IMG/VR virus record: IMGVR_UViG_3300025769_015982
Span: 22,013 to 86,012 of that record
Origin: a virus
Length of the DNA: 64,000 nucleotides
Direction: 5' to 3' (one strand)
In this document: positions 16,000-47,591 of the stretch, piece after piece
Layout of the letters: each line of letters opens with the position of its first letter
How positions within the stretch are numbered: the stretch's first letter is position 1
Notes under the pieces: generated by a model
The model's database searches: none
Seen by the model: only the letters and a program-made list of their open reading frames with translations
What the model was told of the DNA's origin: nothing
Made by a program: the position numbers and the translations under genes

Positions 16000-17469
16000 A
16001 TGAAAAAAGGTTATATTCCTAAAGAGGAAAGGAAAAAAATCCTCTTATTATGCGATGATATTCGCCTCCATAGTGGTATTGCTACTATGGCTAAAGAAAT
16101 AGTATTAAATACGGCTCACCATTTTAATTGGATAAATTTAGGAGCAGCTATTAAACATCCGGAAATTGGTAAAGCATTTGATTTAAGTCAACAAATAAAT
16201 GAAATTGCAAAAATCCCAGATGCAGACGTAAAAGTTATTCCTTTTGATGGTTATGGGAATGATCAAATTATCCGTCAGTTAATTAATCAAGAGAAACCAG
16301 ATGCAATACTTCATTTTACTGATCCACGTTATTGGACTTGGCTATACAGAATGGAAAAAGAAATTAGAACTAAAATCCCTATGGTTTTTTATACTATTTG
16401 GGATGATTTACCATACCCAATGTGGAATAGAGATTTTTACCGTTCAGATGATCTTCTTCTTTGTATTTCAAAACAAACTGAAAATTTAGTTAAAAATGTA
16501 CTTAAAGATTACCCAAAAGAAGATTGGCAAGTACAATATATCCCACATGGTATAGATAAAAATAAATTTTTCCCTATAGCTAATGATCTTGAATTTGACG
16601 TATTTAAAGATAAGTTTTATGAAGGTAAGGAATATGATTTTGTAGTATTTTGGAACAATAGAAATATTCGTCGCAAAAACCCAGGTGATGTAATTACTGC
16701 TTGGAGAGTATTTACAGACCAACTTACCCCAGAACAAGCTGAACGTTGTTTACTTATTATGCACACTGATAAAGTAGATCCTAATGGTACTGATATACCT
16801 GCAGTTATTGAACACATGTGTGATCCTATAAAAGCTAAAGTTAAGTTCACACATGGTAAGTGTGATGAAAAAATCCTTAATTACTATTATAATTTAGCAG
16901 ACGCTCAATTTATGATGACTGATAATGAGGGTTGGGGTTTATCACTCACAGAAGGTATTATGGCGGGTAATATGGCAATTGCCCCTGTTCAGGGAGGTAT
17001 GCAGGATCAAATGCGTTTTGAAGATGAAAACGGTGATTGGATTAATTTCACTACTAAGTTTCCTACTAATAGTAATGGTAAATATGAAAAATGTGGTGAG
17101 TGGGCTATTCCAATGTGGCCTAAAACACGTTCATTAAAAGGATCCCCACAAACCCCATATATTTACGCATCCCAAGTAGATATTGAAGACGCGGGTTTAG
17201 CACTCTTGAAGTGTTATAATCTTGGCAGAGATGAGATTAGTAAAAGGGGCCTTAAAGGTAGAGAATGGTTAATATCTAATGAGGCTAAAATGACTTCTAA
17301 AGACATGGGAGAAAATTTTATAACTCACCTTGATATTTTATTTAAAAACTGGGAACCTGTAGATAGATTTACTATAGAAAAAGTAGATGAAGGGTATACT
17401 ACATTTAATCCTAATCCAGTACAATATACCCCTAAATTTAAACAAAAATTAAAAGAAATTTTAACATGA
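16000..17469 (+). CDS. Glycosyltransferase (GT-B, GT4-like)
   Basis: SGIA N-terminal loop, YIPHG, NRNIRRKN and EGWGLSLTE motifs. Confidence 0.85.
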   Translation: MKKGYIPKEERKKILLLCDDIRLHSGIATMAKEIVLNTAHHFNWINLGAAIKHPEIGKAFDLSQQINEIAKIPDADVKVIPFDGYGNDQIIRQLINQEKPDAILHFTDPRYWTWLYRMEKEIRTKIPMVFYTIWDDLPYPMWNRDFYRSDDLLLCISKQTENLVKNVLKDYPKEDWQVQYIPHGIDKNKFFPIANDLEFDVFKDKFYEGKEYDFVVFWNNRNIRRKNPGDVITAWRVFTDQLTPEQAERCLLIMHTDKVDPNGTDIPAVIEHMCDPIKAKVKFTHGKCDEKILNYYYNLADAQFMMTDNEGWGLSLTEGIMAGNMAIAPVQGGMQDQMRFEDENGDWINFTTKFPTNSNGKYEKCGEWAIPMWPKTRSLKGSPQTPYIYASQVDIEDAGLALLKCYNLGRDEISKRGLKGREWLISNEAKMTSKDMGENFITHLDILFKNWEPVDRFTIEKVDEGYTTFNPNPVQYTPKFKQKLKEILT

Positions 17470-18782
17470 AGCCAACTTGTATAGTTAGTTGTCCAATAGA
17501 TACCTTTAGTGGATATGGACATCGTTCACGTGATTTTGTTCGATCACTTATAGAAGCCAAAAGTAATGATTGGGATATTAAAATTATGCCTCAAAAATGG
17601 GGAAATACCCCATGGGGGTTTTTAGAAGAAACTGATCCTTTAAAACAGTATTATCTTACTCCTGGAGAACACCCCCAACCCGAGGTATGGATGCAAATTA
17701 CAATCCCTAATGAATTTCAAAAACAGGGAAAATACAATATAGGCATAACCGCTGGCATTGAATCTACATGCCCCCCTCCAGACTTTATAGAAGGAATGAA
17801 TAGAATGGATTTAAATTTAGTATCATCTAATTTTACTAAAAATACATTTCAATCCATTAATATTACCCAAAATGATAAGCAGGGGAACCCGGTTAAAGAG
17901 GTAAAACTAGAAAAACCTATTGAAGTTTTACTTGAAGGTTTAGATACAGGAGTTTATTTTAAAGAACCTAATAAATCAGGACTATTAAATAATATTGATG
18001 AAAGTTTTTGTTTTTTATTTACAGGCCACTGGTTACCTGGTAATTTTGGGGAAGATAGAAAAGATGTAGCTACCTTAATTAAAACATTCCTAAAAACATT
18101 TAACCAAAGAGGATCTAAACCAGCATTACTTTTAAAAACTAATAAAGTAGATTATAGTCTTTTGGATAAAGAAGAAATTCTTAAAAGTATAAGGGAAATT
18201 AGAAATCAATTTGAATATAAAAATAATCTTCCTAATATTTACATTCTCCATGGCGAATTTACTAATGAAGAGTTAAATAAAATTAACAATGACCCTAAAG
18301 TTAAAGCATTTGTTTCTTTTACTAAAGGTGAAGGTTTTGGTCGTCCATTACTTGAACAAGCAATTACGGGTAAACCTGTAATTACAACTAACTGGAGTGG
18401 TCATACTGATTTTATTCGCCCTGAATATAATGTATTGCTTGGGGGCGAATTAAAAAATATTCATAAATCGGCTGCTAATAATTGGCTATTAGAACAAGCC
18501 CAATGGTTTGATGTTAATGAAGAAATAGCTTCTAAAGCTATGAAAAATGTTTATAAAAATTATAAAAAGTATATTGAGCAAAGTAGAAAACAAACTAAAT
18601 GGTTAAAAGAAAACTTTAGTCAAAATAAAATGACTGAAACATTAAAACAGTATATGGATAAAGTAGGTATAGTATCTAATGTTCCTTTACAATTACCACA
18701 GTTAAAGAAATTAAATAGTTCTCCTACAAATACTGAACCCCCAAAACTTAAACTCCCTCAACTTAAAAAAATACCAGTATGA
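17466..18782 (+). CDS. Glycosyltransferase (GT-B, GT4-like)
   Basis: SGYG, DRKD and EGFGRPLLE...PVITTNWSGHTDF motifs. Confidence 0.85.
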   Translation: MKPTCIVSCPIDTFSGYGHRSRDFVRSLIEAKSNDWDIKIMPQKWGNTPWGFLEETDPLKQYYLTPGEHPQPEVWMQITIPNEFQKQGKYNIGITAGIESTCPPPDFIEGMNRMDLNLVSSNFTKNTFQSINITQNDKQGNPVKEVKLEKPIEVLLEGLDTGVYFKEPNKSGLLNNIDESFCFLFTGHWLPGNFGEDRKDVATLIKTFLKTFNQRGSKPALLLKTNKVDYSLLDKEEILKSIREIRNQFEYKNNLPNIYILHGEFTNEELNKINNDPKVKAFVSFTKGEGFGRPLLEQAITGKPVITTNWSGHTDFIRPEYNVLLGGELKNIHKSAANNWLLEQAQWFDVNEEIASKAMKNVYKNYKKYIEQSRKQTKWLKENFSQNKMTETLKQYMDKVGIVSNVPLQLPQLKKLNSSPTNTEPPKLKLPQLKKIPV

Positions 18783-19234
18783 CAACAGAATTAATAAAAT
18801 GTCCTTGTTGTAATTCAGATGCTTGTTCCGTAACCACGAATAATGATGTTAAAATTTACTTATGTTGGACGTGTGGGATGACTACAACTAGTGAGTTAAT
18901 TGATGGTAGTAATTTTGAAAAAGAAAATTATGAACACACTGCAGAATTAATTAAAGATTTAAAACAAGTACATGATAATTTAGCTTGGTACCCTAAAGTC
19001 ATTAACTTACAAGAAAACGGAATGGTATTCCCTGAATGGAATAAACGAGTTAAAGATTGGTATTGGGCAGCTGTTAAAGCAATTCCTGTAACAGAGAAAG
19101 AAAAAGAAAAATACCCTGACCCTAATAATCCTGGTGAATTTTATAAATTTAAAACTGACATTAAAAATATAAAACGTTATGACAAGTTATGTTTTATGGA
19201 TGCCGCTGAAGAAATAGGAATGTTTGAACCATGA
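18779..19234 (+). CDS. Hypothetical Zn-finger protein
   Basis: CPCC and CWTCG motifs. Confidence 0.6.
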   Translation: MTTELIKCPCCNSDACSVTTNNDVKIYLCWTCGMTTTSELIDGSNFEKENYEHTAELIKDLKQVHDNLAWYPKVINLQENGMVFPEWNKRVKDWYWAAVKAIPVTEKEKEKYPDPNNPGEFYKFKTDIKNIKRYDKLCFMDAAEEIGMFEP

Positions 19235-19848
19235 AAATAAGTTACGCAATACCGGTCCACAATGAGTATAAAGAAATAGATAGATTACTTGAACATCTTC
19301 TTAAATATAAAAGAAAAGAAGACGAAATCGTAGTACAATGTGATCAAGGCAATACTACAGGAAATGTATATAAAGTATTAAATAAATACGAAAAGCAAAT
19401 TCATATAATTGAATTTCCCCTAAATAGAGATTTTGCAAATTTTAAAAATAATCTAAAAAATAATTGTGAAGGAGATTGGATTTTTCAAATTGATGCTGAT
19501 GAAATACCTGATGAATATTTAATTTCTACTTTACATGCTATTTTAAAAGAAAACCCAACTACTGAAGTATTTTGGGTTCCTAGGATTAATACAGTACATG
19601 GTATAACAAAAGAACATATCCAAAAATGGAGGTGGATTGTAGACCACGATGGAAGAGTTAATTTTCCTGATTACCAATGTAGAATCCTCCAAAATACTCC
19701 TAAGATACAATGGGTTAGTAAAGTCCATGAAGTATTACATGGACATAGTAGCCAAACTAAGTTACCCCAAAACGATGAATTTTGTCTTATTCATCCTAAA
19801 TCTATTGAAAGGCAAGAACACCAGAATAAACTATATAGTGCAATATGA
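19231..19848 (+). CDS. Glycosyltransferase family 2
   Basis: ISYAIPVHNE, WIFQIDADE, PDYQ.R and KVHE motifs. Confidence 0.85.
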   Translation: MKISYAIPVHNEYKEIDRLLEHLLKYKRKEDEIVVQCDQGNTTGNVYKVLNKYEKQIHIIEFPLNRDFANFKNNLKNNCEGDWIFQIDADEIPDEYLISTLHAILKENPTTEVFWVPRINTVHGITKEHIQKWRWIVDHDGRVNFPDYQCRILQNTPKIQWVSKVHEVLHGHSSQTKLPQNDEFCLIHPKSIERQEHQNKLYSAI

Positions 19849-20714
19849 TTTTTTGGAGAATATTTAACAATACTTTATACCCCGTAAAAGAAGTAGAAAA
19901 GTTAGGATTTGAAAAATCTGAAGGATTAAGAATCCCTGATGAATATTTAGAATCTCGTAATTTTACTGTTTTAAGGACTATAAAAGGTATAGGTGATTGG
20001 GGTATTATTTCTGCTATGCCTCGACTGTTAAAAACTAAATATCCTGATTGTAAAGTATTTATACCTTCTAATAAACTTTTTAAAAAATTATTTGATATAG
20101 ATACTAATATAATGTATGATATTTTTTCAAATAATCCCTACGTAGATGGATTTTCGGATGAAATACAAGGAGAAATATTTCATGATCATTACCGAATATA
20201 TGATAATGATAACCCTAATATTCCCTTATTAGAACAAATGTTAAAATTTTGGCAATTTGAGGAACATGAATATCAAGATTCACAACCTGAACTTTATTGG
20301 TCGGACGAAGAAAAACAGTTAGGAGATGCTATTATTGAAAAGTACACAAAGAATCAAGAATTTGGTGCATTACTTATATCGGAAAGATTTGGCACACAAT
20401 TTGGAAAATACGATGAAGTTAGTTATATTAATGATTATAAAAAAATAAATAATTTATTAGACAAATTTCAATTACCCTATTTTTATTGGACTTACAAACC
20501 TTTAGCATCATTTAATTTTAACACTGTAGATCCTATTTTAGATATGCACAATATGGATTTAAGACTACAATTATACATTAAATCTAAAGCCAAAGTAAAT
20601 ATTAGTAACCAATGTGGTACAAACCATTGTGTAGTTAGATATTCAGACGTTTATGAGGTTAAAAGACAATCTATACTAGGATTAAATTTTGTAAAAGGAG
20701 AAAATTACATATGA
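19845..20714 (+). CDS. GT9-like (heptosyltransferase-like) glycosyltransferase
   Basis: GIGDWGIISAMPRLLKTKYP, NNPYVD and QPELY patterns. Confidence 0.6.
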   Translation: MIFWRIFNNTLYPVKEVEKLGFEKSEGLRIPDEYLESRNFTVLRTIKGIGDWGIISAMPRLLKTKYPDCKVFIPSNKLFKKLFDIDTNIMYDIFSNNPYVDGFSDEIQGEIFHDHYRIYDNDNPNIPLLEQMLKFWQFEEHEYQDSQPELYWSDEEKQLGDAIIEKYTKNQEFGALLISERFGTQFGKYDEVSYINDYKKINNLLDKFQLPYFYWTYKPLASFNFNTVDPILDMHNMDLRLQLYIKSKAKVNISNQCGTNHCVVRYSDVYEVKRQSILGLNFVKGENYI

Positions 20715-21427
20715 ACAAAAAAGTAATATACACATCTATATTCGGTAATTATGATACGTTACCTGATATAACCTATTACCCCCCAGGTTTTGATTTTATA
20801 TGCTTTACGGATTCTGATATACAAGCATTAGGGTGGAAGGTAATTAAAGTTCTTCCTCTATATAATGATAATACAAGGAATGCTAAGAAATATAAGATAT
20901 TACCTCATAGATATTTAAAAGATTATGAAATAAGTATTTATATTGACGGTAATTTTTCTGTTACTAAGGATATTAATAAATTAATTGATTTATATTTAAT
21001 AGATGCAAATGCCGCTTTTCATAATCACTCTAAAACTGCATTAGATCCTCGAAATTGTATATATCAGGAAGCTAATATTATACTATCATTTGGTAAAAGA
21101 AATATGCAACTTTGGCCTGAAAGAGGTATGTTAAACTATAAAGATAACCCTGAAACTATAATAAAACAGGTCCAAAAATATCAAAGTGAAGGATATCCTC
21201 AAAATAATGGTTTAATAAAAGGTGGTATTATTTTACGTAGACATAATGAAAAGGAATGTATAACTGCAATGGAAAATTGGTGGTCCGAAATAAAATATCA
21301 TAGTAAACGAGATCAATTAAGTTTTAATTATGTTGCATGGAAAACTAATTTTAAATTTAATTATATGCCCCACGACATCCGCAATAGCGAATATTTTTCA
21401 TATAATAAACATAACCACCAAAAATGA
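20711..21427 (+). CDS. DUF616 (TOD1/MUCI70-like) glycosyltransferase
   Basis: [38 protein letters not shown] and RDQLSFNY motifs. Confidence 0.8.
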
Positions 21428-22167
21428 TCGAATTAGATAAAATAGTAAAATGGGCTAAAAATAATAATTTAGTTTATAAATTAAATCCTAATTATTCTTC
21501 TTCTCACTTAATAAAATCACCTTGGAATATTAAAGAATCAACTTCTTATAATATTTCATTTATAACCCAAGGATGGGTAAGTAATAATGCTGGAGTTGTA
21601 TTTGCCTCAGAAACCCCTGAACATATTGACTCATTATTAGTTATAATCACAACCAGCCCAAAATACCATTTTATAAAGTGCATCAATGAATTTTTTAAAC
21701 CTAATAAATGTGTAGTAACTAAAGGTAAGAATGTTCAAATAGGTCAAAATTGTTCTATAGGGAACGATGGTTTTCAGTATGTGCATGGACCTAAAGGTGA
21801 TATAGTAAAATTCCCTCACTTTGGAAACATTATTATAGAAGATAATGTAGAAATTGCTAATAATGTATGCATTGATAGGGGTGCTTTAAGTAATACTATA
21901 ATCCGTAAAGGAGTAAAAATAGATAATTTAGTACACATTGCACACAATGTAGAAATAGGAGAAAACACTATGGTAGTAGCATTAGCCATGATTGCGGGAA
22001 GTGTTAAAATTGGAAAAAATTGTTGGATTTCTCCTTCTAGTAGCATTAGAGAACAGCTTACTATTGGGGATAATGTTTTAATAGGATTAGGGGCAGTTGT
22101 AATAAAAGATGTTGAATCAAATTCTGTTATGGTAGGTAATCCTGCCAAGCTATTAAGAAAACAATAA
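21424..22167 (+). CDS. Left-handed beta-helix acyltransferase (LpxD-like)
   Basis: [23 protein letters not shown], hexapeptide repeats and GNPAK. Confidence 0.85.
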
Positions 22168-22175: not shown

Positions 22176-22979
22176 ATGGAAAATATAGTTTTTATACCTT
22201 ATATAAAAAGAAATAAATCATTAGGAAATTCTGGTGTAGCTAAACCCCGGTGGGATACTGGATATGATTATGGGATAGATTCATGGAAAAAATGGTCTAA
22301 CAAAAATAATTGTAAACTTATAATTATGGACGAATTAATGCTCCCCGAAGAGGAAATGTTAATTACGTGGCAAAGGTGGAATGTTTTAAACATATTAGAG
22401 CATAACAATGTTGATTATAATCAGGTTTTAGTAGTAGATGCTGACAGTATTGTACATCCAGATTGTCCCAATTTTTTTGAATTAACTGATAATAAGTTTA
22501 CTTCTCAAATTACTGACGGGTGTTATGAATGGGTTAACAGAGCTATCCGAGGTTACTCACAAACATTTTTTAATAAAAAAAATTGTCTTAAACCTTATGA
22601 ATTTTTCCAAACAGGTTTTGTTATTTGTAATAAAACCCATAAGGAATTTTTTGATAAAGTATTTAAATTTTATTGGGAAAATAAGAATAACATAATTAAA
22701 TCATATGATACTTTAAAAACAGGTAGTGATATAGCTCTTTTAAATTGCCTTAGAAAGGAGTATAATATTGAACTAAATATTTTGCCTAGAGAGTATAGCA
22801 TTATGGATGTAACTAGGAAAAATTTATTATATTATGATAATAGACAATGGTGGGAAGATAGTTTAGAAAATTTAATAAATTCTGGTTGGATATACCAGTT
22901 TACTTCTATACCCGAAAATTCTTTAAATAGAGACCGAAAATATTGGATGGAAAGAATACATAAAGAACTAAGTATATGA
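22176..22979 (+). CDS. GT-A fold glycosyltransferase
   Basis: VLVVDADSIVHPDCPNFF DxD motif and FQTGFVI. Confidence 0.7.
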   Translation: MENIVFIPYIKRNKSLGNSGVAKPRWDTGYDYGIDSWKKWSNKNNCKLIIMDELMLPEEEMLITWQRWNVLNILEHNNVDYNQVLVVDADSIVHPDCPNFFELTDNKFTSQITDGCYEWVNRAIRGYSQTFFNKKNCLKPYEFFQTGFVICNKTHKEFFDKVFKFYWENKNNIIKSYDTLKTGSDIALLNCLRKEYNIELNILPREYSIMDVTRKNLLYYDNRQWWEDSLENLINSGWIYQFTSIPENSLNRDRKYWMERIHKELSI

Positions 22980-23401
22980 AAAAGATTATAGGTTTTACTA
23001 GTGGATATTTTGATATCATGCACCCAGGACATGTTATGATGCTACAAGAATGTAAAAGATATTGTGACTACTTAATAGTAGCTGTAAATGAATATAAAAA
23101 TAAAACCCCCCAACCTGATGGGAGATTTAAAAACGAACCCATATGGAATCCTAATGAGAGATTATTGATGGTTTCATCTTGTAAATATGTGGATGAAGCT
23201 TTTTTGTATGATGGAGAACAGGAGTTATATAATTATTTAAAACATAATTTAGAAAGATTAGATGTTAGAATGGTAGGAGAAGACCATAAAGGTAAACCTT
23301 TTACTGGTAATGATCTAGATTTACCTATTATATTCAATAGTAGAAACCATAATTACAGTACTACTAACACTATTAAATTAATAATAGAAAAAAGAAAGTA
23401 A
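22976..23401 (+). CDS. Cytidylyltransferase (TagD/RfaE-like)
   Basis: GYFDIMHPGH (HxGH), ER...V..CKYVDE and YSTT motifs. Confidence 0.85.
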   Translation: MKKIIGFTSGYFDIMHPGHVMMLQECKRYCDYLIVAVNEYKNKTPQPDGRFKNEPIWNPNERLLMVSSCKYVDEAFLYDGEQELYNYLKHNLERLDVRMVGEDHKGKPFTGNDLDLPIIFNSRNHNYSTTNTIKLIIEKRK

Positions 23402-24147
23402 TGAAAATTGAATTTATATTTTCGGAATTTGGGCCAAGAACCCAAGCCAATCAACAATGGGTTAATTCCATCCCCAGGTTAGATCCTACATATAGTTCTG
23501 TAAAAACTTACTTCCCCGAAGCTAACTTAGTTCTATATACAGATAGACCAGAAATTAAAAACGATTATAAAGATATTGAAGTAAGATTAATTGACGTAGA
23601 TAAAAGTCCTTTTAATAAAAAAAATCACAGATGGGGATGGCATTGTTGTGACTATTACCAAGTACTAGGATTATTAAATTCAAAAGCAGATATAGCAATT
23701 TCTTGTGATTCTGATCTAATGTTTATCTCTGATCAAGTAAAAACGTTAATCCCTATAATTGAAAAATTTGGAATATGTGTACCTACAAATGAAAGACAAC
23801 TAGTTAAAGTTGATGGCATACATACTAGGGGAAATGATGGAGATTATTACCTTGATGAAGATCAAAGTATGGGTAATCTATTAACATATGACTTATGGTG
23901 GGCTGGATTTAATACTAAAGATAACCGAGCTAGAAAGTATTTAGAAGAATTTTGTAATCTTATGAAAACCAACCCTAAAAGAGCCCCATTACAAATGACT
24001 CGAGCTGCATGGAATACAGGTATTTATCCATATTCAACCCCCCAACAGTGGGGTGTGGGTTCGGGTTATATTGGTTGTGGTAATGAAATTATATTACATG
24101 TAGGTCATAAAAATGTACAAGATTTTTATTTAGAAAAAAGTATATGA
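23401..24147 (+). CDS. Putative GT-A glycosyltransferase
   Basis: LYTD, ISCDSD (DxD) and terminal ILHVGH; island context. Confidence 0.5.
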   Translation: MKIEFIFSEFGPRTQANQQWVNSIPRLDPTYSSVKTYFPEANLVLYTDRPEIKNDYKDIEVRLIDVDKSPFNKKNHRWGWHCCDYYQVLGLLNSKADIAISCDSDLMFISDQVKTLIPIIEKFGICVPTNERQLVKVDGIHTRGNDGDYYLDEDQSMGNLLTYDLWWAGFNTKDNRARKYLEEFCNLMKTNPKRAPLQMTRAAWNTGIYPYSTPQQWGVGSGYIGCGNEIILHVGHKNVQDFYLEKSI

Positions 24148-25496: not shown

Positions 25497-25942
25497 AACT
25501 AATTTCACATAGAGGTAATACGACAGGCCCCAATCCCCAACAAGAAAATCACCCTAATTATATTATAAACACTTTACATCAGGGGTATGATGTTGAAATA
25601 GATGTATGGTATAGTAAAAATAAGTTTATGCTAGGACATGATAACCCCCAATATAAATTTCCTTTTAACCTATTATTAAACTTTTATACAAAATTATGGA
25701 TACATTGTAAAAATATTGAAGCCTTAATTAAATTTAAAAATACAGATACTTTATCGAATCGATTAAATTATTTTTGGCACGAAAAAGATACAGTTACTTT
25801 AACGAGTAAAAATTACATATGGGCATATCCCGGAAACCAACCTATAACTAATAGTATAGCAGTTATGCCTGAAATAAATAATGATAACACATCTCAATGC
25901 ATAGGAATATGTAGTGATTATATAAAAAATTATAAAAAATGA
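25493..25942 (+). CDS. Glycerophosphodiester phosphodiesterase-like protein
   Basis: ISHRG, EN, DVEIDV, LGHD and GICSD motifs. Confidence 0.7.
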   Translation: MKLISHRGNTTGPNPQQENHPNYIINTLHQGYDVEIDVWYSKNKFMLGHDNPQYKFPFNLLLNFYTKLWIHCKNIEALIKFKNTDTLSNRLNYFWHEKDTVTLTSKNYIWAYPGNQPITNSIAVMPEINNDNTSQCIGICSDYIKNYKK

Positions 25943-38498: not shown

Positions 38499-38499
38499 T

Positions 38500-39955: not shown

Positions 39956-40528
39956 GTGGAAAATATTAATTTTGTAAATATGCATAGGTATCAGAACATA
40001 GAAAGAACTGTGTACCAAAAAGTGATAGAATGGAAACCTAAAACAATAGTAGAATTAGGCCATGGGTCGGGTGCTTTAACTTCTGCTATGGGTCTTGCTT
40101 TAAAAAAACTAAATAATAATGGAAAAATATATAGTTATGATGTTAACGGAACTTCTAACTATACTTTAGGTCTAATGTCTAAATCGGCCCTAGAAAATGT
40201 AAAAGAAAGAAAATTAACCGATATAGTTGAATTTACAAAAGGAAATGTTTTTGAAACATGGGTAAAAGATCCATTTCCATTTGATTTATTATTAATAGAT
40301 ATTAATAATACATGGAATATATTATATGATATTTTAATAGCTAATACTTTTATTAATAATGAAATAAAAAAAGGAGCTAAAATCTTAGTAGAGGGAGGTG
40401 ATCCTAACCACCCTAGAATAAATTCTAATACATTAGATTTTTTTAACAATAGTTGTAATAAAAACATCTTTACTATAGAACATTTAAGTGGTTCTGGGAG
40501 AACCAGCATATCAATATTAACAATATGA
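39956..40528 (+). CDS. Class I SAM-dependent methyltransferase
   Basis: IVELGHGSG, YSYD and FDLLLID motifs. Confidence 0.75.
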   Translation: MENINFVNMHRYQNIERTVYQKVIEWKPKTIVELGHGSGALTSAMGLALKKLNNNGKIYSYDVNGTSNYTLGLMSKSALENVKERKLTDIVEFTKGNVFETWVKDPFPFDLLLIDINNTWNILYDILIANTFINNEIKKGAKILVEGGDPNHPRINSNTLDFFNNSCNKNIFTIEHLSGSGRTSISILTI

Positions 40529-41400
40529 AAAAACTAGCAGTAATAGCGAGTGGTTGGCATTATTCATCACATTTTTATGAAAAAATAGCCAAACAACAGA
40601 AAGTAGAAGGATGGGACATAGAATTATTTGTGATATCTCATAGACACCCTGAACATAAAGACACAATAAAGGAAAAAGAACACGTTAGAAATTATGAAGG
40701 GAAAGAATTAATGACTTACCTTGATAAGGTAATGTATGAAACCCCTATAACTGAAAAAGAAATAACAGATTTAGGATGGACTTATATTGAAAAACCCAAC
40801 ACGATAGGAGATATGGAGGTTTTTAACCAATGGTCTGATGACTATAATTATTTAGATTACGATTTATTCCTTATAACCCATGATGATAATTTTATTTTAT
40901 CAGATAAAATATTTAAAGATATTTTACTTAATAACATAGAGTTACATAAACCTATTATAGAATCAAAATATGGAAACCATCAATTTAAAACCCAACTAGT
41001 AGATAATAACTTAGATTGGATGTTTTTAGATAATGGATATTCAGAATACATAGCTAAGGCTTTTACTCCAAGAGGATCTTTTAGTTTTTATAAAAAAGAA
41101 CTCATAGATTTATTACCTAATAATAAATTTAATATGTACGAAGATGGAGGAACAGGAATAGTTAATCGAGAGGGAAAAACTAATAGTGTTGGGCATGAAG
41201 GAATTTCAGCCTGGAATACTCACGCAGGCACTTTTAGAAATGCTTTGTATGATTTAGACCTAGTTAAACACACTCGTTGGTTATCAAGTACTAAACGTGT
41301 TAGTAATTATTGCATTGAAGGTGAAAGGGGTTTTATTAGTAATAATAATTGTGGGGAAAAGCACTATAAAACCTCAGTAAAACAAATATTTGAAAAATGA
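40525..41400 (+). CDS. Putative GT-A glycosyltransferase
   Basis: YDLFLITHDD motif; island context. Confidence 0.5.
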   Translation: MKKLAVIASGWHYSSHFYEKIAKQQKVEGWDIELFVISHRHPEHKDTIKEKEHVRNYEGKELMTYLDKVMYETPITEKEITDLGWTYIEKPNTIGDMEVFNQWSDDYNYLDYDLFLITHDDNFILSDKIFKDILLNNIELHKPIIESKYGNHQFKTQLVDNNLDWMFLDNGYSEYIAKAFTPRGSFSFYKKELIDLLPNNKFNMYEDGGTGIVNREGKTNSVGHEGISAWNTHAGTFRNALYDLDLVKHTRWLSSTKRVSNYCIEGERGFISNNNCGEKHYKTSVKQIFEK

Positions 41401-42137
41401 TAAATACTCCTGTTATACATGATAGGCATATAGTAAAAGATGTTTTTAATCAAATTATAAAAAGTAAAATATATAAAGATGCTTTTAATAAACCCGATAA
41501 TTTAACAATAGTAACTGTTAGAAACGAAGGTACTATGGAAGATAGAATTATACCTTCATTAAAAGGTTATGAAGATAAATCAATATTAGAAGCTAATCTG
41601 GAATATTTAGGAATAAAGCCCTTAACTATACTAACAGACTCTAGATTACCTTGGAGAAATACTTTCAAGTTTGAAATAATATTAGACTATTTAAATTCGG
41701 GAAAATGCGATACAGAATATTTTATGTTTTGTGATGCTATAGATGTTATATTTACAGATGATCCCCAAAAAGTTATTAATATATTTGAATCATTTGAATG
41801 TGATGCCTTATTTATGTCTACACATTCTACAGATGGTTATAAATGCATGCCCGGAGTTAAAAAATTTATAGATGAAACTATAAAAAGTAATAGAAGATAC
41901 TTAAATAGTGGAGTATATATAGGTAAAACTTCTTTTATAAAAGAAATATTTGAAGAAGCTATTAAATATGCTATTCCTCATGGGGTTACTATGGGGGAAT
42001 ATCATACATATTTAAATAGTAATCCTAATAATTACCCCCAAGGTTCACAAGATCAGGATATATTTAGGTTTTTAGAACCTAAATTCTACCCTAGATTGAA
42101 AGTTGATTATGAGAACAAAATGGCATATAGAAGTTAA
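41397..42137 (+). CDS. PLOD-type (procollagen hydroxylysine) glycosyltransferase domain protein
   Basis: FMFCDAIDVIF, YLNSGVYIG, DQ and KVDYE motifs resemble the PLOD GT domain. Confidence 0.6.
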   Translation: MINTPVIHDRHIVKDVFNQIIKSKIYKDAFNKPDNLTIVTVRNEGTMEDRIIPSLKGYEDKSILEANLEYLGIKPLTILTDSRLPWRNTFKFEIILDYLNSGKCDTEYFMFCDAIDVIFTDDPQKVINIFESFECDALFMSTHSTDGYKCMPGVKKFIDETIKSNRRYLNSGVYIGKTSFIKEIFEEAIKYAIPHGVTMGEYHTYLNSNPNNYPQGSQDQDIFRFLEPKFYPRLKVDYENKMAYRS

Positions 42138-42149: not shown

Positions 42150-42794
42150 ATGAAGTTTTTAAATTTTAATAAAGTTTTATGTTTATCACCCCACCCAGAT
42201 GACGTAGAATATAGTATGTTAGGAACTATTACTAAATATACAAGTACAGTTTTTGATGTTTTATGCTTAACAAAGGGGGGAGCAAAAGGGTTTGATCAAA
42301 CTAATGGTCCTAATAGATTAAAAGAAGTACAAGCTGTGTGGGATAGTATTGATACCCCTAATGTTAATTTATTATTTTCTGATTGTGATTTTTTTGAAGA
42401 CAAAGCAGGTGATGCTGGTTGGGTAAACTACATAGAAAATAATTTTGTAAAAAACACAGATTATGATTGTATATTTTTACCTACAAAAGATGATTCTATG
42501 TTTGAACATAAATTTGTAAATGGTTTAGGACCCGCCATAGTAAGAATACTCCCTATTAGTTTAGTAGAATACAGAACACCTAGTACTACTAATGAATGGA
42601 AACCTAATATATTTGTAAATGTAAAAGACCAATATAATAAAAAACTTAAAAGCTTAACTAATTTTACCTCTCAAACCAGTAAATCTTATTTTCAGAAAAA
42701 TACTTTAGAAGCATTTCATAGTAATTTCCAATGCAGAAAAAGAGGTATACAATTAGTAGAACAGTTTAAAACTATAGAAATATTTAATAAATGA
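42150..42794 (+). CDS. PIG-L family deacetylase
   Basis: LSPHPDDVE, R..E and SQ motifs. Confidence 0.82.
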   Translation: MKFLNFNKVLCLSPHPDDVEYSMLGTITKYTSTVFDVLCLTKGGAKGFDQTNGPNRLKEVQAVWDSIDTPNVNLLFSDCDFFEDKAGDAGWVNYIENNFVKNTDYDCIFLPTKDDSMFEHKFVNGLGPAIVRILPISLVEYRTPSTTNEWKPNIFVNVKDQYNKKLKSLTNFTSQTSKSYFQKNTLEAFHSNFQCRKRGIQLVEQFKTIEIFNK

Positions 42795-43711
42795 AAAAAG
42801 TACTAATAACCGGAGGAGCAGGTACAGTAGGTAAAGCCTTTATTAAAAAATATTATAACGATTTTGAATTTTTTAATATTAGCAGAAACGAATCTCAAAT
42901 AGCTAAGCTAGCTAGGAAATATCCTAAAGTAACTAATTTTATAGGAGATATAAAAAATTTAGAATTAATGATTAATATATTTGAAAGAGTAAAGCCAGAT
43001 GTAGTCATACATGCTGCTGCTCTCAAACATGTTAATTTGGCTGAGTTAAATCCTTCAGAAGCTGTAGAAGTAAATATTAATGGTAGTCTTAATGTGATAA
43101 AAGCTAGTATTAGAGCTAAGGTACCTATAACCATAGGAGTTAGTACTGATAAAGCATGTGATCCAGATAATATATATGGTTATACTAAAAGTTTAATGGA
43201 AAAAATGTTTTTAGAAAACTATAATTCTGAAACTAAATTTGTTTGTACACGTTTTGCCAATGTAGCTAAAAGTAATGGATCAGTAATTCCTTTTTGGAAA
43301 AATTTAATAAAAAAAGGACAACCATTAAAATTAACCGATCCTAAAATGAATCGATTAATGTTTTCTAAACAAGATTCTGCTGAATTAATATATAATGCTT
43401 ATAAAAATGCTTTAGATTTAGATAAACCGTTTATATTATCTAATATTATGAAAAATGTTAATTTAGGAAGGTTAGCTAATATTATGTCCCCAGGTAATGT
43501 AGAAATAGTAGGATTAAGACCTGGAGAAAAATTAAATGAAACTTTAGTAAGTTCTAAAGAAATCCCTTACTCTAGATTAAAAAATAACTTAATTTTTTTA
43601 TTTAAAGACAAACAACCACCTAAACACAATTTACCTATGCATGAACATTCATCCATGACAGCTAAAAATATGTCTGATAAAGAACTACGCGAATTATTAA
43701 CATTAAAATGA
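42791..43711 (+). CDS. UDP-GlcNAc 4,6-dehydratase (PseB/CapD-like)
   Basis: ITGGAGTVG, HAAALKHV, STDKA, YGYTK, SNGSVIP and RPGEKL motifs. Confidence 0.9.
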   Translation: MKKVLITGGAGTVGKAFIKKYYNDFEFFNISRNESQIAKLARKYPKVTNFIGDIKNLELMINIFERVKPDVVIHAAALKHVNLAELNPSEAVEVNINGSLNVIKASIRAKVPITIGVSTDKACDPDNIYGYTKSLMEKMFLENYNSETKFVCTRFANVAKSNGSVIPFWKNLIKKGQPLKLTDPKMNRLMFSKQDSAELIYNAYKNALDLDKPFILSNIMKNVNLGRLANIMSPGNVEIVGLRPGEKLNETLVSSKEIPYSRLKNNLIFLFKDKQPPKHNLPMHEHSSMTAKNMSDKELRELLTLK

Positions 43712-44640: not shown

Positions 44641-44641
44641 A

Positions 44642-45862
44642 ATGAAAATAAGTTTAATACAACCAGGTAGAAATAATCTTAAGTACCTAAAATGGTCTTA
44701 TAATTCAATTAGAAAAAATCAAGGCGATCATAAAGTAGAAATATGTGTCGCTGACGATTTTAGTAGTGATGGTACGTGGGATTGGTGTTTAAAAATGATG
44801 GATAAAGATCCATTATTTAAAGCTATTAAGAATGAAGGACCAACTAGGTTAGGCCACACTATATTATATGATCGCCTTGTAAATGAAGTAGCAACAAATG
44901 ATATTTGTATGATTTATCATGCTGATATGTATTTATGCCCGGGTGCATTAGATGCTATTGAAGATGAACTTAAAGAAAAAACAATAGTATCACTTACTAG
45001 AATTGAACCACCATTACACCCTGATGGGCCCGAAAAAATACTTAAAGATTTTGGTATTGAACCTGAAGAGTTCAATGAACAGGGTTTACTTGACTTTTTA
45101 AATTCAAGAGTACCTAATAATGATACTACTGAAGGTATATTTGCCCCGTGGGCATTTTGGAAAAGTGATTTCCAAGAAATAGGAGGACACGATCCTATAT
45201 TTGCACCCCAATCAAAGGAAGATACAGATATATTTAACCGTTTTCAGTTAAATGGTATTAAGTTTATCCAAACGTGGCATGGATGTGTTTATCATATGAC
45301 TTGTAGAGGTAGCAGATTTGCTGATGGGGCAAAACGAAATCCTAATGGTGAGGTATTTATGAAAAATAGGGAAACAGATGAGTGGTTAAAACAAAATCAA
45401 AAATCAACCAAAGAATTTATCCGTAAGTGGGGCCATTACTGTAAACATGACCCATTAATGAAACCAATTATTCCACCTAAATATGATATAGGATTTTTTA
45501 TAAAAAACGCTAATTTAAAATTAATAGAAATTCTTGAACCTTGGTGTAATACGGTATACTATAATGAAAATGAAATTCGTAATTTCAAATATGTAGATTA
45601 TATTAAAAATGAAGATACTTCATTTAATTTATATGAAAAATTTAAACCATATAAAGGTGAAAAGCAAAATAGTATACTAATTAAAATAGATGGTAATAAC
45701 TTTAACCAACAAGATTTCCAGATAATACAACAATTATCTGAAATTATTCAAGATAGTGGTGAAATAGGAAAATTTAGCATAAGTAATTTGGATATTGAAA
45801 TATCAGACATTACAACAAACGAGCACGAATTAATAATTTGTAAAAATAATTTAATAAAATGA
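44642..45862 (+). CDS. Glycosyltransferase family 2
   Basis: ADDFSSDGT, HADM, IGGHD..F..EDTD and VYH motifs. Confidence 0.85.
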   Translation: MKISLIQPGRNNLKYLKWSYNSIRKNQGDHKVEICVADDFSSDGTWDWCLKMMDKDPLFKAIKNEGPTRLGHTILYDRLVNEVATNDICMIYHADMYLCPGALDAIEDELKEKTIVSLTRIEPPLHPDGPEKILKDFGIEPEEFNEQGLLDFLNSRVPNNDTTEGIFAPWAFWKSDFQEIGGHDPIFAPQSKEDTDIFNRFQLNGIKFIQTWHGCVYHMTCRGSRFADGAKRNPNGEVFMKNRETDEWLKQNQKSTKEFIRKWGHYCKHDPLMKPIIPPKYDIGFFIKNANLKLIEILEPWCNTVYYNENEIRNFKYVDYIKNEDTSFNLYEKFKPYKGEKQNSILIKIDGNNFNQQDFQIIQQLSEIIQDSGEIGKFSISNLDIEISDITTNEHELIICKNNLIK

Positions 45863-46725
45863 AAAAAGTATTAGTAACTGGTGGATTAGGATTTGTAGGA
45901 TCTACTTTAGTAAAAAAATTAAAAAACACAGGTAATTATAAAATTACTGTTATAGATAATTTATCTTCGCCTTCTAGTAATGTAACATATAAAGAGGAAG
46001 GCGTTGAGTATATTATAGATGATATACTTAATATTGACAATATTTCTTATAAAGATCTTAATTTTGATATAATTTATCATTTAGCTGGTTTAGCAAGAAT
46101 TCAACCCAGTTTTCAAAACCCCGTAAAATATTTTAATAACAATACTTTTGGTACTGTTAAAATATGTGATTTAGCAAGAAGATGTAATGCCAAAATCATA
46201 TATGCAGGTAGTAGTTCGGCATATGCGGGTACTATGAATAGCCCATATGCTTATTTTAAATTTAATGGAGAAGAAATATGTAAATTATTTAGTCAGTTAT
46301 ATGACATGTCTGCAGTTACTGCTAGATTTTTTAATGTATATGGGAAACGACAACCCACTGAAGGTAAATTTGCTACAGTTTTAGGAATATTTGAGCGCCA
46401 GTGTAAAGCTAAAGAACCATTAACAGTAGTAGGTGACGGTGAACAAAGACGTGATTTTACCCATGTAAATGATATAGTAAATGGGTTAATAGAATTATCT
46501 AAAGGCGAATATAAAGGAGAAATTTATAATTTGGGTACTGGTAGAAATTATAGCATAAATGAATTAGTTAAGTTTTTTGAGTGTACTTCTGTTAGTATAC
46601 CTGAAAGACCAGGAGAAGCTAGGTTATCTATTGCTGATATAACAAAAACAAAACAAGAACTAAATTGGGAACCTACCCATTCGTTAAAGCAATATATTAA
46701 AGATTTTTTAAACAATATAAAATGA
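45859..46725 (+). CDS. NAD-dependent epimerase/dehydratase
   Basis: TGGLGFVG, YHLA, YAYFK, RFFNVYG and GDGEQRRDF motifs. Confidence 0.9.
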   Translation: MKKVLVTGGLGFVGSTLVKKLKNTGNYKITVIDNLSSPSSNVTYKEEGVEYIIDDILNIDNISYKDLNFDIIYHLAGLARIQPSFQNPVKYFNNNTFGTVKICDLARRCNAKIIYAGSSSAYAGTMNSPYAYFKFNGEEICKLFSQLYDMSAVTARFFNVYGKRQPTEGKFATVLGIFERQCKAKEPLTVVGDGEQRRDFTHVNDIVNGLIELSKGEYKGEIYNLGTGRNYSINELVKFFECTSVSIPERPGEARLSIADITKTKQELNWEPTHSLKQYIKDFLNNIK

Positions 46726-47591
46726 ATATAGGAATAATTGGTAGGGGCTTTGTAGGCTCTGCAGTAGAATATGGTTTTTCCCCACAAACCGGATGTGATG
46801 GGGCAGTAGTTAGAGTTTATGATGCTGATCCTAGTAAAAGTCAAAACACTTTAGAAGAAGTAGTAACAAAATCAGACTTTATATTTTTATCAGTCCCTAC
46901 TCCATCTAATCTAGATGGATCATGTAACTTAGATATAGTTTATACTGTAATGCAGGATATAAATAACTATATAGATCCAAATACCCCTAAATCAAAGCGG
47001 CCAATAATACTTCTTAGATCTACAGTTATTCCTGGTACTACTAGAAAAATCCAAAAACACTTTCCCGCCTTAAATATAGTGTTTAATCCAGAATTCTTAA
47101 CCGAAAGATCAGCTAAATTTGATTTTATTAATCAATCTCGATTTATATTAGGAGGTTCAAAAAAGAATACTAGTAAAGTAACTTTACTTTATCAGTGGAG
47201 ATTTGGTAATACTAGTGCATATATTGAAACCAATTTTGAAACAGCAGAAATGATTAAATATATGAATAATTGTTTCTTTGCAACCAAAGTTTCATTTATG
47301 AATGAAATGAAATTAATTGCAGAAAGAACTAATGTTGAATGGGATACTGCGGTCGACGGATTTGTGTCTGATGGGAGAGTAGGCCATAGCCATTTAGCAG
47401 TACCCGGCCCTGATGGTAAAAGAGGGTTTGGTGGTTCATGCTTCCCAAAAGATATACAAGCAATGATAAAATTAGGTGACGAGTTAGGCATTAGTACTTC
47501 TACACTTAAAGGAGCGTGGGATACTAACATTAATGTTAGACCCGAAAAGGATTGGGAAAAATTAAAAGGACGAGCTATTGTTAATCCTTAA
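46722..47591 (+). CDS. UDP-glucose/GDP-mannose 6-dehydrogenase (short form)
   Basis: GRGFVG, VPTP, RSTVIPG, NPEFL and GFGGSCFPKD motifs. Confidence 0.9.
   Translation: MNIGIIGRGFVGSAVEYGFSPQTGCDGAVVRVYDADPSKSQNTLEEVVTKSDFIFLSVPTPSNLDGSCNLDIVYTVMQDINNYIDPNTPKSKRPIILLRSTVIPGTTRKIQKHFPALNIVFNPEFLTERSAKFDFINQSRFILGGSKKNTSKVTLLYQWRFGNTSAYIETNFETAEMIKYMNNCFFATKVSFMNEMKLIAERTNVEWDTAVDGFVSDGRVGHSHLAVPGPDGKRGFGGSCFPKDIQAMIKLGDELGISTSTLKGAWDTNINVRPEKDWEKLKGRAIVNP

Follow-up and report, generated by a model that had tools for sequence, protein, structure and literature searches.

Giant viruses such as the chloroviruses PBCV-1 and NY-2A, and Mimivirus with its fibril glycans, carry their own membrane-independent rare-sugar synthesis and many glycosyltransferases (GTs), and in the flagellin islands of bacteria (Campylobacter/Aeromonas Pse/Leg plus Maf) the protein glycosylated in the cytoplasm is one that self-assembles. 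For tailed phages, the only case known to have been demonstrated by experiment is the virion O-glycosylation of mycobacteriophages (Che8, Corndog, Myrna; Freeman et al. 2023, cited in PMC12619734 and PMC12801897). There, one to a few soluble GTs, encoded beside the structural genes and using host sugar nucleotides, modify structural proteins of the phage itself within the cytoplasm, at the C-termini of capsid and tail tube. The T4-like marine cyanomyoviruses P-SSM2, S-SCSM1 and S-SCSM2R carry large clusters of GT and NDP-sugar genes, the 13 GTs of S-SCSM2R having been described as perhaps the most of any marine phage (PMC12801897).

The window analysed here, 64,000 nt in length, derives from an uncultured, lytic marine relative of Flavobacterium phage "immuto" and is a member of the immuto-like (divPolA1) myoviruses; its promoter motifs point to a host in the Bacteroidota, probably a flavobacterium. 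It contains one co-oriented block of ~32 kb (positions 15788-47591), comprising a small regulator-like gene and 38 ORFs (Table 1). Exactly 38 plus-strand ORFs, non-overlapping apart from their junctions, lie within 16000-47591, and 29 of the 37 junctions overlap by 1-26 nt, the others being seven gaps of 1-12 nt and one of 108 nt (38392-38499). The count and coupling thus agree with the original prediction of about 38 contiguous, mostly coupled genes, while its start at 16000 has to be moved, since the unit begins with the promoter-operator at 15756 and the 63-aa gene at 15788. Independent runs bridge the junctions, so the assembly is not chimeric, an outcome that had been named as a possible refutation.

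Table 1. Features of the glycosylation island and its borders (window positions; M1-M3, sugar modules).
Feature	Position	Strand	Remarks
Promoter-like box CGTATATGTA, island head	15756..15787	+	
Probable operator: perfect 8-bp inverted repeat GTATATGT, 8-nt spacer, ACATATAC	15761-15784		overlaps box CGTATATGTA
63-aa protein, candidate regulator of island	15788..15979	+	RHH-like by eye
GT1, core GT4 (GT-B) GT, virus-only family	16000..17469	+	EX7E motif E310-E318
GT2', second core GT4-like GT	17466..18782	+	EX7E motif; always adjoins GT1
Core 151-aa protein	18779..19234	+	N-terminal Cys-rich zinc-ribbon-like motif
Core GT2 GT, 205 aa	19231..19848	+	
Semi-core 289-aa protein	19845..20714	+	GT9-like N-terminal motif by eye; no support from profiles
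TOD1/MUCI70 GT-like	20711..21427	+	Pfam
Hexapeptide-repeat acyl/acetyltransferase	21424..22167	+	Pfam
Semi-core GT-A (GT8-like) nucleotide-diphospho-sugar transferase, w22176	22176..22979	+	DAD motif, Atlas
Small cytidylyl/adenylyltransferase, TagD/RfaE-domain-II-like	22976..23401	+	M1 start
248-aa protein	23401..24147	+	M1
Beta-phosphoglucomutase-like HAD domain + sugar-1-phosphate nucleotidyltransferase fusion	24144..25496	+	M1
149-aa protein	25493..25942	+	M1
DUF7796 protein, possibly GT-like	25939..26676	+	M1; Pfam
Carbamoyltransferase 1, NodU/CmcH type	26685..28307	+	Pfam
DUF5672 protein, possibly GT-like	28304..29086	+	Pfam
NDP-sugar C-methyltransferase (Methyltransf_13/23/14)	29099..30268	+	M2 start
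Cupin, dTDP-sugar isomerase/epimerase-like	30265..30675	+	M2
FdtA/WxcM-type sugar 3,4-ketoisomerase	30654..31076	+	M2
2OG-Fe(II) oxygenase	31073..31729	+	M2
Short RmlD-like SDR reductase	31726..32436	+	M2
Short DegT-family aminotransferase-like protein	32429..33361	+	M2
CMP-sugar (Kdo/nonulosonic acid) cytidylyltransferase-like	33336..34064	+	inserted M3 start
PseC/LegC-like aminotransferase	34040..35254	+	M3
NeuB/PseI-type nonulosonic acid synthase without SAF domain	35254..36078	+	M3
Short-chain dehydrogenase	36071..36787	+	M3
97-aa protein, weakly HAD-phosphatase-like	36781..37074	+	M3
218-aa protein, candidate transferase	37071..37727	+	M3
220-aa protein	37729..38391	+	M3
Carbamoyltransferase 2	38500..39954	+	preceded by island's only sizeable gap (108 nt)
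Methyltransf_24 methyltransferase	39956..40528	+	M2 resumes
291-aa protein	40525..41400	+	M2
GT_PLOD-type GT	41397..42137	+	M2; Pfam
PIG-L family de-N-acetylase	42150..42794	+	Pfam
PseB/CapD-like UDP-GlcNAc 4,6-dehydratase	42791..43711	+	
Core GT-B fold GT w43708, 310 aa	43708..44640	+	AF2, Foldseek; no Pfam hit
Core GT2 GT, 406 aa	44642..45862	+	
Semi-core NDP-sugar epimerase/dehydratase	45859..46725	+	
Short nucleotide-sugar dehydrogenase, UGDH-like, without C-terminal domain	46722..47591	+	
Late-type promoter motif ATATTTATAAC	47593..47603	+	first transcription signal past island

The enzyme content was assigned with Pfam profiles and structure-based additions. Pfam detects two GT4-like and two GT2 proteins, TOD1/MUCI70, GT_PLOD, DUF7796 and DUF5672 as GT-like; in total eight GTs are well supported and three to five are further candidates (the two GT-like DUF proteins and those assigned by eye), so that the predicted figure of more than ten is about right but short of full proof. 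Nucleotide-sugar genes include NeuB, a CMP-sugar synthetase-like protein, a PseB/CapD-like dehydratase, epimerases, UGDH, the HAD-nucleotidyltransferase fusion and a TagD-like cytidylyltransferase. The tailoring set comprises two DegT aminotransferases, two carbamoyltransferases, a sugar C-methyltransferase and two further methyltransferases, together with the PIG-L deacetylase, the 2OG oxygenase and the hexapeptide acyltransferase.

GT1 is a GT-B/GT4 enzyme whose best structural match is a chlorovirus GT4 (3OY2, NY-2A B736L), a likeness at the level of fold only (16% identity). Its family comprises 270 50%-identity clusters at E<=1e-30 and is virus-only, with the nearest Atlas clusters 95-100% viral and the top ones 100%. 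An intein is present in some GT1 homologues. The RM378 homologue of GT2' is GT-B-like in BFVD (rank 34). The protein w43708, with ~5000 metagenomic homologues, has a GT-B fold by its AF2 model (pLDDT 92) and by Foldseek, whose matches include the protein-glycosylating Gtf3, GtfC and SdgB among other GT-B enzymes; such fold matches leave the acceptor of these enzymes unspecified. The core GT2 near the distal end (406 aa) has a very high depth in metagenomes and is therefore common to many related phages.

The locus occupies the same genomic place in every relative. In the window it lies within the replication module and away from the structural genes, which counts against virion glycosylation. 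In immuto, whose sheath and GT1 are 50% and 52% identical to those of the window, it likewise follows a PD-(D/E)XK nuclease, starts with a small ORF, two GT4s, a small protein and a GT2, and ends with an epimerase and a GT2, but the immuto island spans only ~10.8 kb and 13 genes, whereas that of the window is three times larger and has three extra sugar modules. Comparison across related phages, as originally proposed, reveals conserved ends (the virus-only GT4 pair, GT2, GT-B and the second GT2) and a mosaic middle. The core GTs are as conserved as the replication genes, while cassette genes are 55-85% identical between phages with backbones only 39-45% identical, which indicates that the middle is a swappable mosaic whose cassettes have been exchanged laterally. 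The prediction of a very AT-rich swappable core therefore holds for exchange, but the AT excess is marginal (GC 0.292 in the core, versus 0.299 and 0.307 at the two ends of the island and 0.34-0.36 on either side of it). Phages of Flavobacterium, Microcystis and Rhodothermus all carry GT1 and GT2' at this genomic position, and the retention of this pair, with its virus-only GT1, across hosts speaks for an acceptor that the phage brings along and against a glycan intermediate particular to the host.

Bacterial O-antigen, capsule and flagellin loci share with the window conserved flanks, a hypervariable centre, and genes for nonulosonic acids, amino-deoxy-sugars and methyl/carbamoyl tailoring, but the window lacks their PGT, Wzx, Wzy, ABC or Maf transferase genes. 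The giant viruses resemble it in virus-encoded, membrane-independent rare-sugar synthesis and many GTs, but have eukaryotic hosts and unrelated acceptors. Compared with the mycobacteriophages, the window has 38 island genes, its own sugar-nucleotide pathways and a location in the replication module. The cyanomyovirus clusters belong to other gene families, and P-SSM2, S-SCSM1 and S-SCSM2R contain no GT1 homologue.

The island products are soluble, as had been anticipated. The maximum Kyte-Doolittle 19-residue score over all 38 ORFs is 1.43, below the transmembrane threshold of 1.6, and no transmembrane-like segment is found in the ~100 ORFs of four related islands (~140 over five island versions). 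Profiles for Wzx, Wzy/Wzy_C, PglC/WbaP (Bac_transf), WecA, ABC-2 (ABC2_membrane), Maf and STT3 give no match, either in the contig or in three complete genomes of relatives (immuto, Mel-JY01 and RM378), in line with the predicted lack of flippase, polymerase, ABC exporter and initiating transferase. The further claim of a cytoplasmic acceptor gains from soluble products and the lack of export and priming genes; missing membrane genes nevertheless fall short of proof. Soluble GTs are also able to modify lipid-linked intermediates of the host, which then exports them; the prophage enzyme TarP is a precedent.

A candidate acceptor is suggested by the motif [ST]-G-S, counted with correction by within-protein shuffling. 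The tail sheath, the only outward-facing virion protein on the window's contig, has five sites versus 0.9 expected (z 4.3), at positions conserved among the window, immuto and Mel-JY01. Immuto outer tail proteins have ~87 sites versus ~19 expected, with no excess in its replication proteins, major capsid protein, portal or tape measure. Outer tail proteins of Mel-JY01 and RM378 also show an excess, and the Mel-JY01 proteins rich in the motif have their orthologues in the baseplate and fibre module of immuto. In support of a link to the GT pair, the excess is absent in three myoviruses without GT1 (Melnitz, HSE3 and pf16); against it, the excess is also absent around the sheath genes of the GT1-bearing megaphage LR756508. 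The motif could have a purely structural role and have been inherited together with the GT pair, and the comparison is therefore phylogenetically non-independent. Indirectly, it favours virion glycosylation with outer tail proteins as candidate acceptor, to which we give about an even chance. Among the acceptors originally proposed, the tail fibres are thus retained, as part of the outer tail, the capsid is unsupported because the immuto major capsid protein lacks the excess, and DNA is opposed by the nucleoside analysis of immuto cited below.

The main rival, which we regard as possible but clearly less probable, is remodelling of the host envelope, in which soluble phage enzymes would make unusual nucleotide sugars and, at the membrane inner face, attach them to undecaprenyl-linked host intermediates of O-antigen, capsule or general O-glycosylation, and host flippase, polymerase and ligase would export the altered glycan. 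The resulting surface change could serve superinfection exclusion, keep progeny from sticking to debris, or help avoid grazers. The large marine cyanomyovirus "LPS/cell-wall" clusters are usually read as such host-surface modifiers (PMC12801897). Peripheral GT2 and GT4 enzymes of O-antigen pathways likewise lack transmembrane segments, the layout of conserved ends and hypervariable middle is typical of bacterial surface-glycan loci, and nonulosonic acids, C-methyl amino sugars and carbamoyl groups are characteristic components of the surface polysaccharides of bacteria. In addition, the island sits among early and middle replication genes, and the box before its first gene holds the CGTATAT core of the early-like promoter class. 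Against this, the core GT pair is kept in phages of three host phyla with differing lipid-linked intermediates, RM378 carries the pair without any sugar genes, and the GT1 family is virus-only. To our knowledge, phage seroconversion systems depend on membrane proteins (Gtr, Oac, Wzy variants), none of which is found here, and remodelling leaves the outer-tail [ST]-G-S enrichment tracking the GT pair unexplained.

Less probable still, and in our view doubtful, is another cytoplasmic product, such as a soluble glycoconjugate, a glycosylated small molecule or a non-virion phage or host protein: carbamoyltransferases, sugar C-methyltransferases, aminotransferases and 2OG oxygenases also mark glycosylated natural-product pathways, but Pfam finds none of the enzymes that form a scaffold (PKS, NRPS or cyclase) among the island genes, GTs so many and so diverse suggest an oligosaccharide carried by a macromolecule, and the lineage-wide GT core suggests a conserved macromolecular acceptor. 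DNA hypermodification, with GTs decorating modified phage bases like the T4 alpha/beta-glucosyltransferases or phage GTs on 5hmC, is very improbable, even though the island lies inside a replication and nucleotide-metabolism module close to the 7-deazaguanine pathway, T-even phages glycosylate DNA with GT-B enzymes, a DNA alpha-glucosyltransferase is among the distant fold matches and diverse DNA glycans have been shown (bioRxiv 10.1101/2023.12.21.572611), as LC-UV-MS/MS of DNA from immuto, which has the same core GTs, detected only dA, dC, dT and fdPreQ1 and no sugar-modified nucleoside (PMC10516641), making DNA an unlikely target, no hydroxymethylase or TET-type gene is among the contig's annotated ORFs, and more than ten GTs, nonulosonic acid synthesis and carbamoylation go far beyond any known DNA glycan.

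Under glycosylation of the outer tail, we infer the acceptor, the order of enzyme action and the role of the coat as follows. The locus would serve a lytic marine myovirus of the immuto kind as a self-contained glycan factory in the cytoplasm. A conserved soluble set (GT1/GT2', GT2, w43708 and the second GT2) would first recognise a phage-encoded acceptor, most likely Ser/Thr in [ST]-G-S turns of outward-facing domains in the tail sheath, baseplate periphery and fibres, where the core enzymes would add the inner glycan. Interchangeable middle cassettes would then supply unusual activated sugars and tailor the outer glycan; those of the window may comprise one module for activation of the glycerol- or hexose-phosphate type, one for a C-methylated amino-deoxy-sugar and an inserted one for nonulosonic acid with carbamoylation, giving the particle a strain-specific sugar coat.

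The genes would be expressed as one long transcription unit under the tiny conserved regulator-like protein and a palindromic operator. No other gene of the locus is as conserved as that of the 63-aa protein (75-97% identity); its ribbon-helix-helix-like character is tentative, as Pfam and PDB profiles give it no support. A 4-TM coiled-coil protein immediately upstream of the island (14802-15755) bears no resemblance to a flippase. The promoter at the island head is a hybrid of early-like and late-like motifs, and every relative, immuto among them, has a palindrome at this place, though of different sequence.

The island comprises exactly 38 co-oriented ORFs between 16000 and 47591, which overlap at 29 of the 37 junctions and leave a single sizeable gap of 108 nt (38392–38499), in agreement with the original prediction of about 38 contiguous, coupled genes. 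Pfam searches assign to it glycosyltransferase-like proteins (two GT4-like, two GT2, TOD1/MUCI70, GT_PLOD, DUF7796 and DUF5672), tailoring enzymes (two NodU/CmcH carbamoyltransferases, a three-domain sugar C-methyltransferase, two more methyltransferases, a PIG-L deacetylase and a hexapeptide acyltransferase) and nucleotide-sugar genes (NeuB, a CMP-sugar synthetase-like protein, a PseB/CapD-like dehydratase and a short UDP-sugar dehydrogenase). Further enzymes are two cupins (one FdtA-type), a 2OG oxygenase, RmlD-like, SDR and epimerase enzymes, two DegT-family proteins, a beta-phosphoglucomutase-like HAD fused to a sugar-phosphate nucleotidyltransferase, and a small TagD/RfaE-like nucleotidyltransferase. 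The nonulosonic-acid genes comprise PseB-, PseC/LegC-, NeuB/PseI- and cytidylyltransferase-like members, which, like the other island enzymes with NCBIfam matches, all score below their equivalog cut-offs, and neither a PseG/LegG hydrolase nor a PseH-type acetyltransferase was recognised among the island genes. These divergent enzymes are in many cases shortened; since other phages keep them in the same short form, they are not decayed genes. Whichever target holds, the island offers a wealth of divergent, compact sugar-tailoring enzymes.

Coordinates of the features discussed (window positions unless another sequence is named)
Feature	Position	Description
Tail sheath gene	contig 1206–3344	
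Divergent PolA-like protein	contig 12778–14103	441 aa; 9.2 kb before the window
7-deazaguanine cluster	240–5064	QueD, 263-aa DpdA-like (phrog_19058, weak DUF6610), QueC-like, QueE, phosphoribosyltransferase, FolE2
Family-B DNA polymerase, two ORFs	6341–9253	571 aa and 308 aa; 88-aa ORF between them (8056–8322)
GroEL	9984–11903	538 aa; with the preceding 99-aa ORF
317-aa protein	14802–15755	long coiled coil flanked by TM-like segments, three N-terminal and one C-terminal; conserved; adjoins the island upstream
Inverted repeat and 63-aa ORF	15756–15979	putative switch of the island
Perfect 8-bp inverted repeat, overlapped by box CGTATATGTA	15761–15784	
Cassette module M1	22976–29086	recurs in contig L095
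Cassette module M2	29099–33361 and 39956–42137	contiguous in L096–L100
Cassette module M3	33336–39954	nonulosonic-acid genes and second carbamoyltransferase; insertion into M2; partly common to relative G004
406-aa GT2	44642–45862 (raised contig depth over 44509–45842)	
Six tRNA genes	57151–57820	
PEP mutase–cytidylyltransferase fusion	L090:8658–9938	in the G004 cassette

GT1, encoded by the first of the 38 ORFs, is assigned with confidence from its AF2 model (pLDDT 94) to the GT-B/GT4 enzymes. Foldseek matches the model to GT4 structures at E values of 1e-16 to 1e-12, the best being the GT4 enzyme of chlorovirus NY-2A (PDB 3OY2). GT1 and its neighbour GT2' both fit CAZy family GT4 (retaining GT-B), with two Rossmann domains in the GT-B arrangement and an EX7E motif in the second, C-terminal one; their Pfam matches lie below the gathering threshold. 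Two formerly unknown genes are shown to be glycosyltransferases: w43708 (ORFs are named by window start), whose model (pLDDT 92) has a predicted GT-B fold with GT4 BA1558/BshA, Gtf3, SenB, TarM and SdgB as best matches, and w22176, which carries a DAD motif and groups with virus-only GT8-like clusters. Of the more than ten glycosyltransferase-like proteins originally proposed, eight are well supported, the remainder being two GT-like DUFs and a few candidates seen by eye, and the readings of w19845 as GT9-like and w37071 as sialyltransferase-like are by eye only. PDB profile searches of w43708, w22176, w19845 and the 63-aa protein at the island head gave nothing significant. Comparison of w43708 with the GT1 family by hhalign likewise yielded no match, ten unknown ORFs had none in NCBIfam or relaxed Pfam scans, and the literature on DUF5672 and DUF7796 offered nothing useful. 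Action of the 2OG oxygenase and the PLOD-type glycosyltransferase on a collagen-like fibre finds no support on the contig, which has neither collagen-like (G-X-Y) repeats nor Ser/Thr-rich tracts.

The predicted lack of transmembrane segments and of flippase, polymerase, exporter and initiating transferase stands. The 19-residue Kyte-Doolittle mean reaches a maximum of 1.43 in the island, and none of the ~140 ORFs in the islands of five phages (~100 of them from four related islands) has a segment of 1.6 or more. [quoted passage not shown] Specifically, the initiating polyprenyl-phosphate transferases PF02397 and PF00953 are absent over cut-off from these four sequences and have no Pfam match in the island, the flippase, polymerase and exporter families PF01943, PF04932 and PF01061 likewise have none over cut-off, and the Maf (MptE-like, PF01973) transferase of flagellin-type NulO glycosylation was not found. 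The island thus differs from a Wzx/Wzy- or ABC-dependent surface polysaccharide locus in both its initiating transferase and its multi-pass membrane parts, neither of which was found in it. The 317-aa protein next to the island has no family match and was rejected as an export component, as it has too few helices and is missing at that place in immuto.

The island lies in a linear viral contig of 86,012 bp, of which the window is the final 64 kb; a CheckV completeness of 52% implies a genome of ~165 kb. The 22 kb upstream of the window encode the tail sheath, a tube/tape-measure/baseplate block, the divergent PolA-like protein, UvsX, an exonuclease, DnaB and ribonucleotide reductase, and window positions 1–15755 encode the 7-deazaguanine pathway, the split family-B polymerase, a sliding clamp, GroEL, clamp loader subunits and a PD-(D/E)XK-type exonuclease. 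The window had no megablast match among 50,697 phage records, and relatives are detectable at the protein level only, the closest cultured phages being immuto (sheath 50%, GT1 52%) and Mel-JY01 (PolB 34%, GT1 40%). On account of this kinship, the contig is placed in the immuto-like (divPolA1) group of 155–190-kb myoviruses, which have a divergent PolA plus a regular polymerase (PMC11188092), and it shares with that group its synteny and the core genes for divPolA1, GroEL, 7-deazaguanine synthesis and sheath. The PolA-like protein of the contig fits the divPolA1 marker (PMC11188092). The split of the family-B polymerase is kept in all close relatives, and a 99-aa ORF preceding the GroEL gene occupies the GroES position of immuto. 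The homologous immuto pathway swaps all G for fdPreQ1 (PMC10516641); no QueF was seen in the 7-deazaguanine cluster of the window, whose phage probably carries a different 7-deazaguanine.

Two classes of promoter-like motif were found. The first, ATATTTATAAC, lies 12–22 nt ahead of the sheath, tube and tape-measure genes and may be late-like, while the second, CGTATATTTA, often with TTTG ~20 nt upstream, precedes small genes at 54–63 kb; examples of the two classes are at 47593, 54991, 55670, 56910 and 58644. CGTATATTTA with its upstream TTTG resembles the Bacteroidetes −7/−33 promoter type, and this points to a Bacteroidota host. Together, the motifs, a GC content of ~30–35% and the kinship with immuto suggest a flavobacterial host.

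The transcription unit of the island begins before 16000, at a box that resembles both promoter classes and overlaps a perfect inverted repeat. The 63-aa ORF that follows is the most conserved in the region (75–97% identity, versus 47–63% for its neighbours), and every relative has a palindrome at the island head, although that of immuto differs in sequence. Repeat and ORF probably form an autoregulated switch of the island. The 63-aa protein (w15788) looks ribbon-helix-helix-like by eye only, with no family match or profile backing. Inside the island, no convincing terminator was found on the + strand, the first strong one being at 51419, and the late-type motif at 47593 marks the next unit. 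The internal class-A motif at 33345 was rejected as a promoter, as it sits in conserved N-terminal codons of the cytidylyltransferase, and a sigma-70 scan was discarded after giving fewer matches than shuffled sequence. The stretch also occurs in metatranscriptome libraries (X5–X8), as contigs only and with DNA carry-over possible, so its presence there was not accepted as proof of transcription.

Comparison of related islands reveals conserved ends and a mosaic middle. The upstream exonuclease is carried by 80 IMG/VR loci, and every locus that extends far enough has the same order: TM protein, 63-aa protein, GT1, GT2', a 151-aa zinc-ribbon-like protein and GT2. In every relative examined, the island follows clamp loader and PD-(D/E)XK nuclease genes. 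The four full related islands retrieved span 18.7–24 kb, versus 31.6 kb in the window, and share this left end (often plus a 289-aa protein and a TOD1-like glycosyltransferase) and the right end, formed by the w43708 GT-B enzyme, the 406-aa GT2 and an epimerase, while their middles differ. The immuto version, in which GT1 and GT2' are gp181 and gp180, measures 10.8 kb and that of Mel-JY01 ~6 kb; in RM378, GT1 and GT2' stand alone, flanked by a nuclease-like gene and ribonucleotide reductase. Cassette genes are 55–85% identical to those of the window in phages whose backbone is 39–45% identical, and modules have therefore been exchanged laterally, which bears out the proposed swappable hypervariable cassette. 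The core is not, as had been described, very AT-rich, its GC being 0.292 versus 0.299 and 0.307 at the island ends. The cassettes of relatives add, among others, a PEP-mutase/cytidylyltransferase fusion and a UDP-GlcNAc 2-epimerase; the fusion points to phosphonate decoration of the G004 phage's glycan. Runs of at least eight studies (2017–2025) contain nearly all of a 10-kb stretch from the middle. Independent contigs that differ little from the window span its junctions at 33336, 39954, 43708 and 47591, so that the assembly is sound and not chimeric.

The GT1 family is large and virus-only, and GT1 and GT2' are kept in phages of three host phyla at replication-gene-like levels. This conservation argues for an acceptor that the phage would bring along, rather than a host-specific intermediate. 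Some GT1 homologues of 785–888 aa (P0240, P0259) carry a LAGLIDADG-bearing intein just before the EX7E motif, and such an intein, unusual in a glycosyltransferase, suggests that the gene is indispensable to those phages.

A candidate acceptor motif is [ST]-G-S, for which within-protein shuffles gave the expectation. The tail sheath of the window phage has five sites versus 0.9 expected (z 4.3), every other contig protein has at most one, and there is no excess in the inner structural proteins that the contig encodes. In immuto, a strong excess occurs in the baseplate-periphery/fibre block, gp056, fibres and sheath (gp041; pooled, ~87 versus ~19 expected), and none is seen in replication proteins, GroEL, terminase, portal, major capsid protein or tape measure. 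Mel-JY01 and RM378 also show the excess, and the motif-rich Mel-JY01 proteins are orthologous to the immuto block. None of the [ST]-G-[ST] sites in the sheath of the window phage (residues 93, 165, 214/216, 258, 274 and 397) falls within the conserved C-terminal domain, and three of them (T165, T214 and S274), in the variable N-terminal two thirds, align among the window phage, immuto and Mel-JY01. None occur in the full-length sheath homologue of Bacillus phage HSE3, and the structural regions of Melnitz, HSE3 and pf16, all without GT1, show no excess. No excess surrounds the sheath genes of megaphage LR756508, although it carries GT1; this counts against a link between motif and pair, and the comparison as a whole draws on a small, phylogenetically non-independent sample. 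The motif could also be purely structural.

Virus-encoded glycan factories are established in giant viruses. For mycobacteriophages, virion glycosylation by phage-encoded glycosyltransferases is established according to work cited in PMC12619734 and PMC12801897. The island likewise encodes soluble glycosyltransferases; mycobacteriophage genes of this kind lie in or next to the structural module, whereas the island follows clamp loader and nuclease genes. The most likely function, with about an even chance, is that the phage glycosylates its own outer tail proteins in the cytoplasm; the inner glycan would be conserved and the outer part swappable. More tentatively, the GT4 pair, found from Rhodothermus to Flavobacterium to Microcystis phages, may start O-glycosylation at an [ST]-G-S sequon on exposed domains of sheath, baseplate and fibres, and the cassettes would then build strain-specific glycans by adding nonulosonic acids, C-methyl amino sugars and carbamoyl groups, and phosphonates in relatives. 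Such a coat might shield the particle, or bait the glycan-binding surface proteins of hosts that feed on polysaccharides.

The main rival, in which the phage remodels the envelope glycans of its host by way of the host's own carrier and export machinery, is the usual reading of similar cyanomyovirus clusters (PMC12801897); we consider it rather unlikely here. If it held, the island would be the largest known investment of a lytic phage in rewriting the host envelope, at about one fifth of the genome. Other cytoplasmic products are improbable. Glycosylation of DNA, an acceptor allowed by the original prediction, is very improbable because the DNA of immuto, which has the same core glycosyltransferases, yields only dA, dC, dT and fdPreQ1 by LC-UV-MS/MS (PMC10516641); that DNA thus lacks the glycosylated base that T4-type glucosylation, with its hydroxymethyl-pyrimidine pathway, would leave.

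If the glycans do decorate the virion, abundant marine phages would wear a genetically swappable sugar coat, with possible effects on host recognition, on grazing, and on how sticky and stable the particles are. Virion glycosylation would in that case reach beyond a few actinobacteriophages to a major ocean lineage, possibly with a sequon; were the sequon reading true, it would be widespread and sequon-directed. Large glycan clusters are already known in marine cyanophages (PMC12801897). New here are the size and chemistry of the window version, the conserved ends and laterally exchanged cassettes demonstrated for the immuto-like lineage, a GT4 pair confined to viruses and reaching RM378, and the link to a cultured relative for testing the acceptor: immuto, grown on Flavobacterium sp. 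LMO8, allows a direct answer on the glycan target.

The 406-aa GT2 stands out in depth, at several-fold to 20–50x its neighbours in three of four runs and least in X3. This high summed contig depth indicates that many co-occurring related phages share the gene nearly unchanged.
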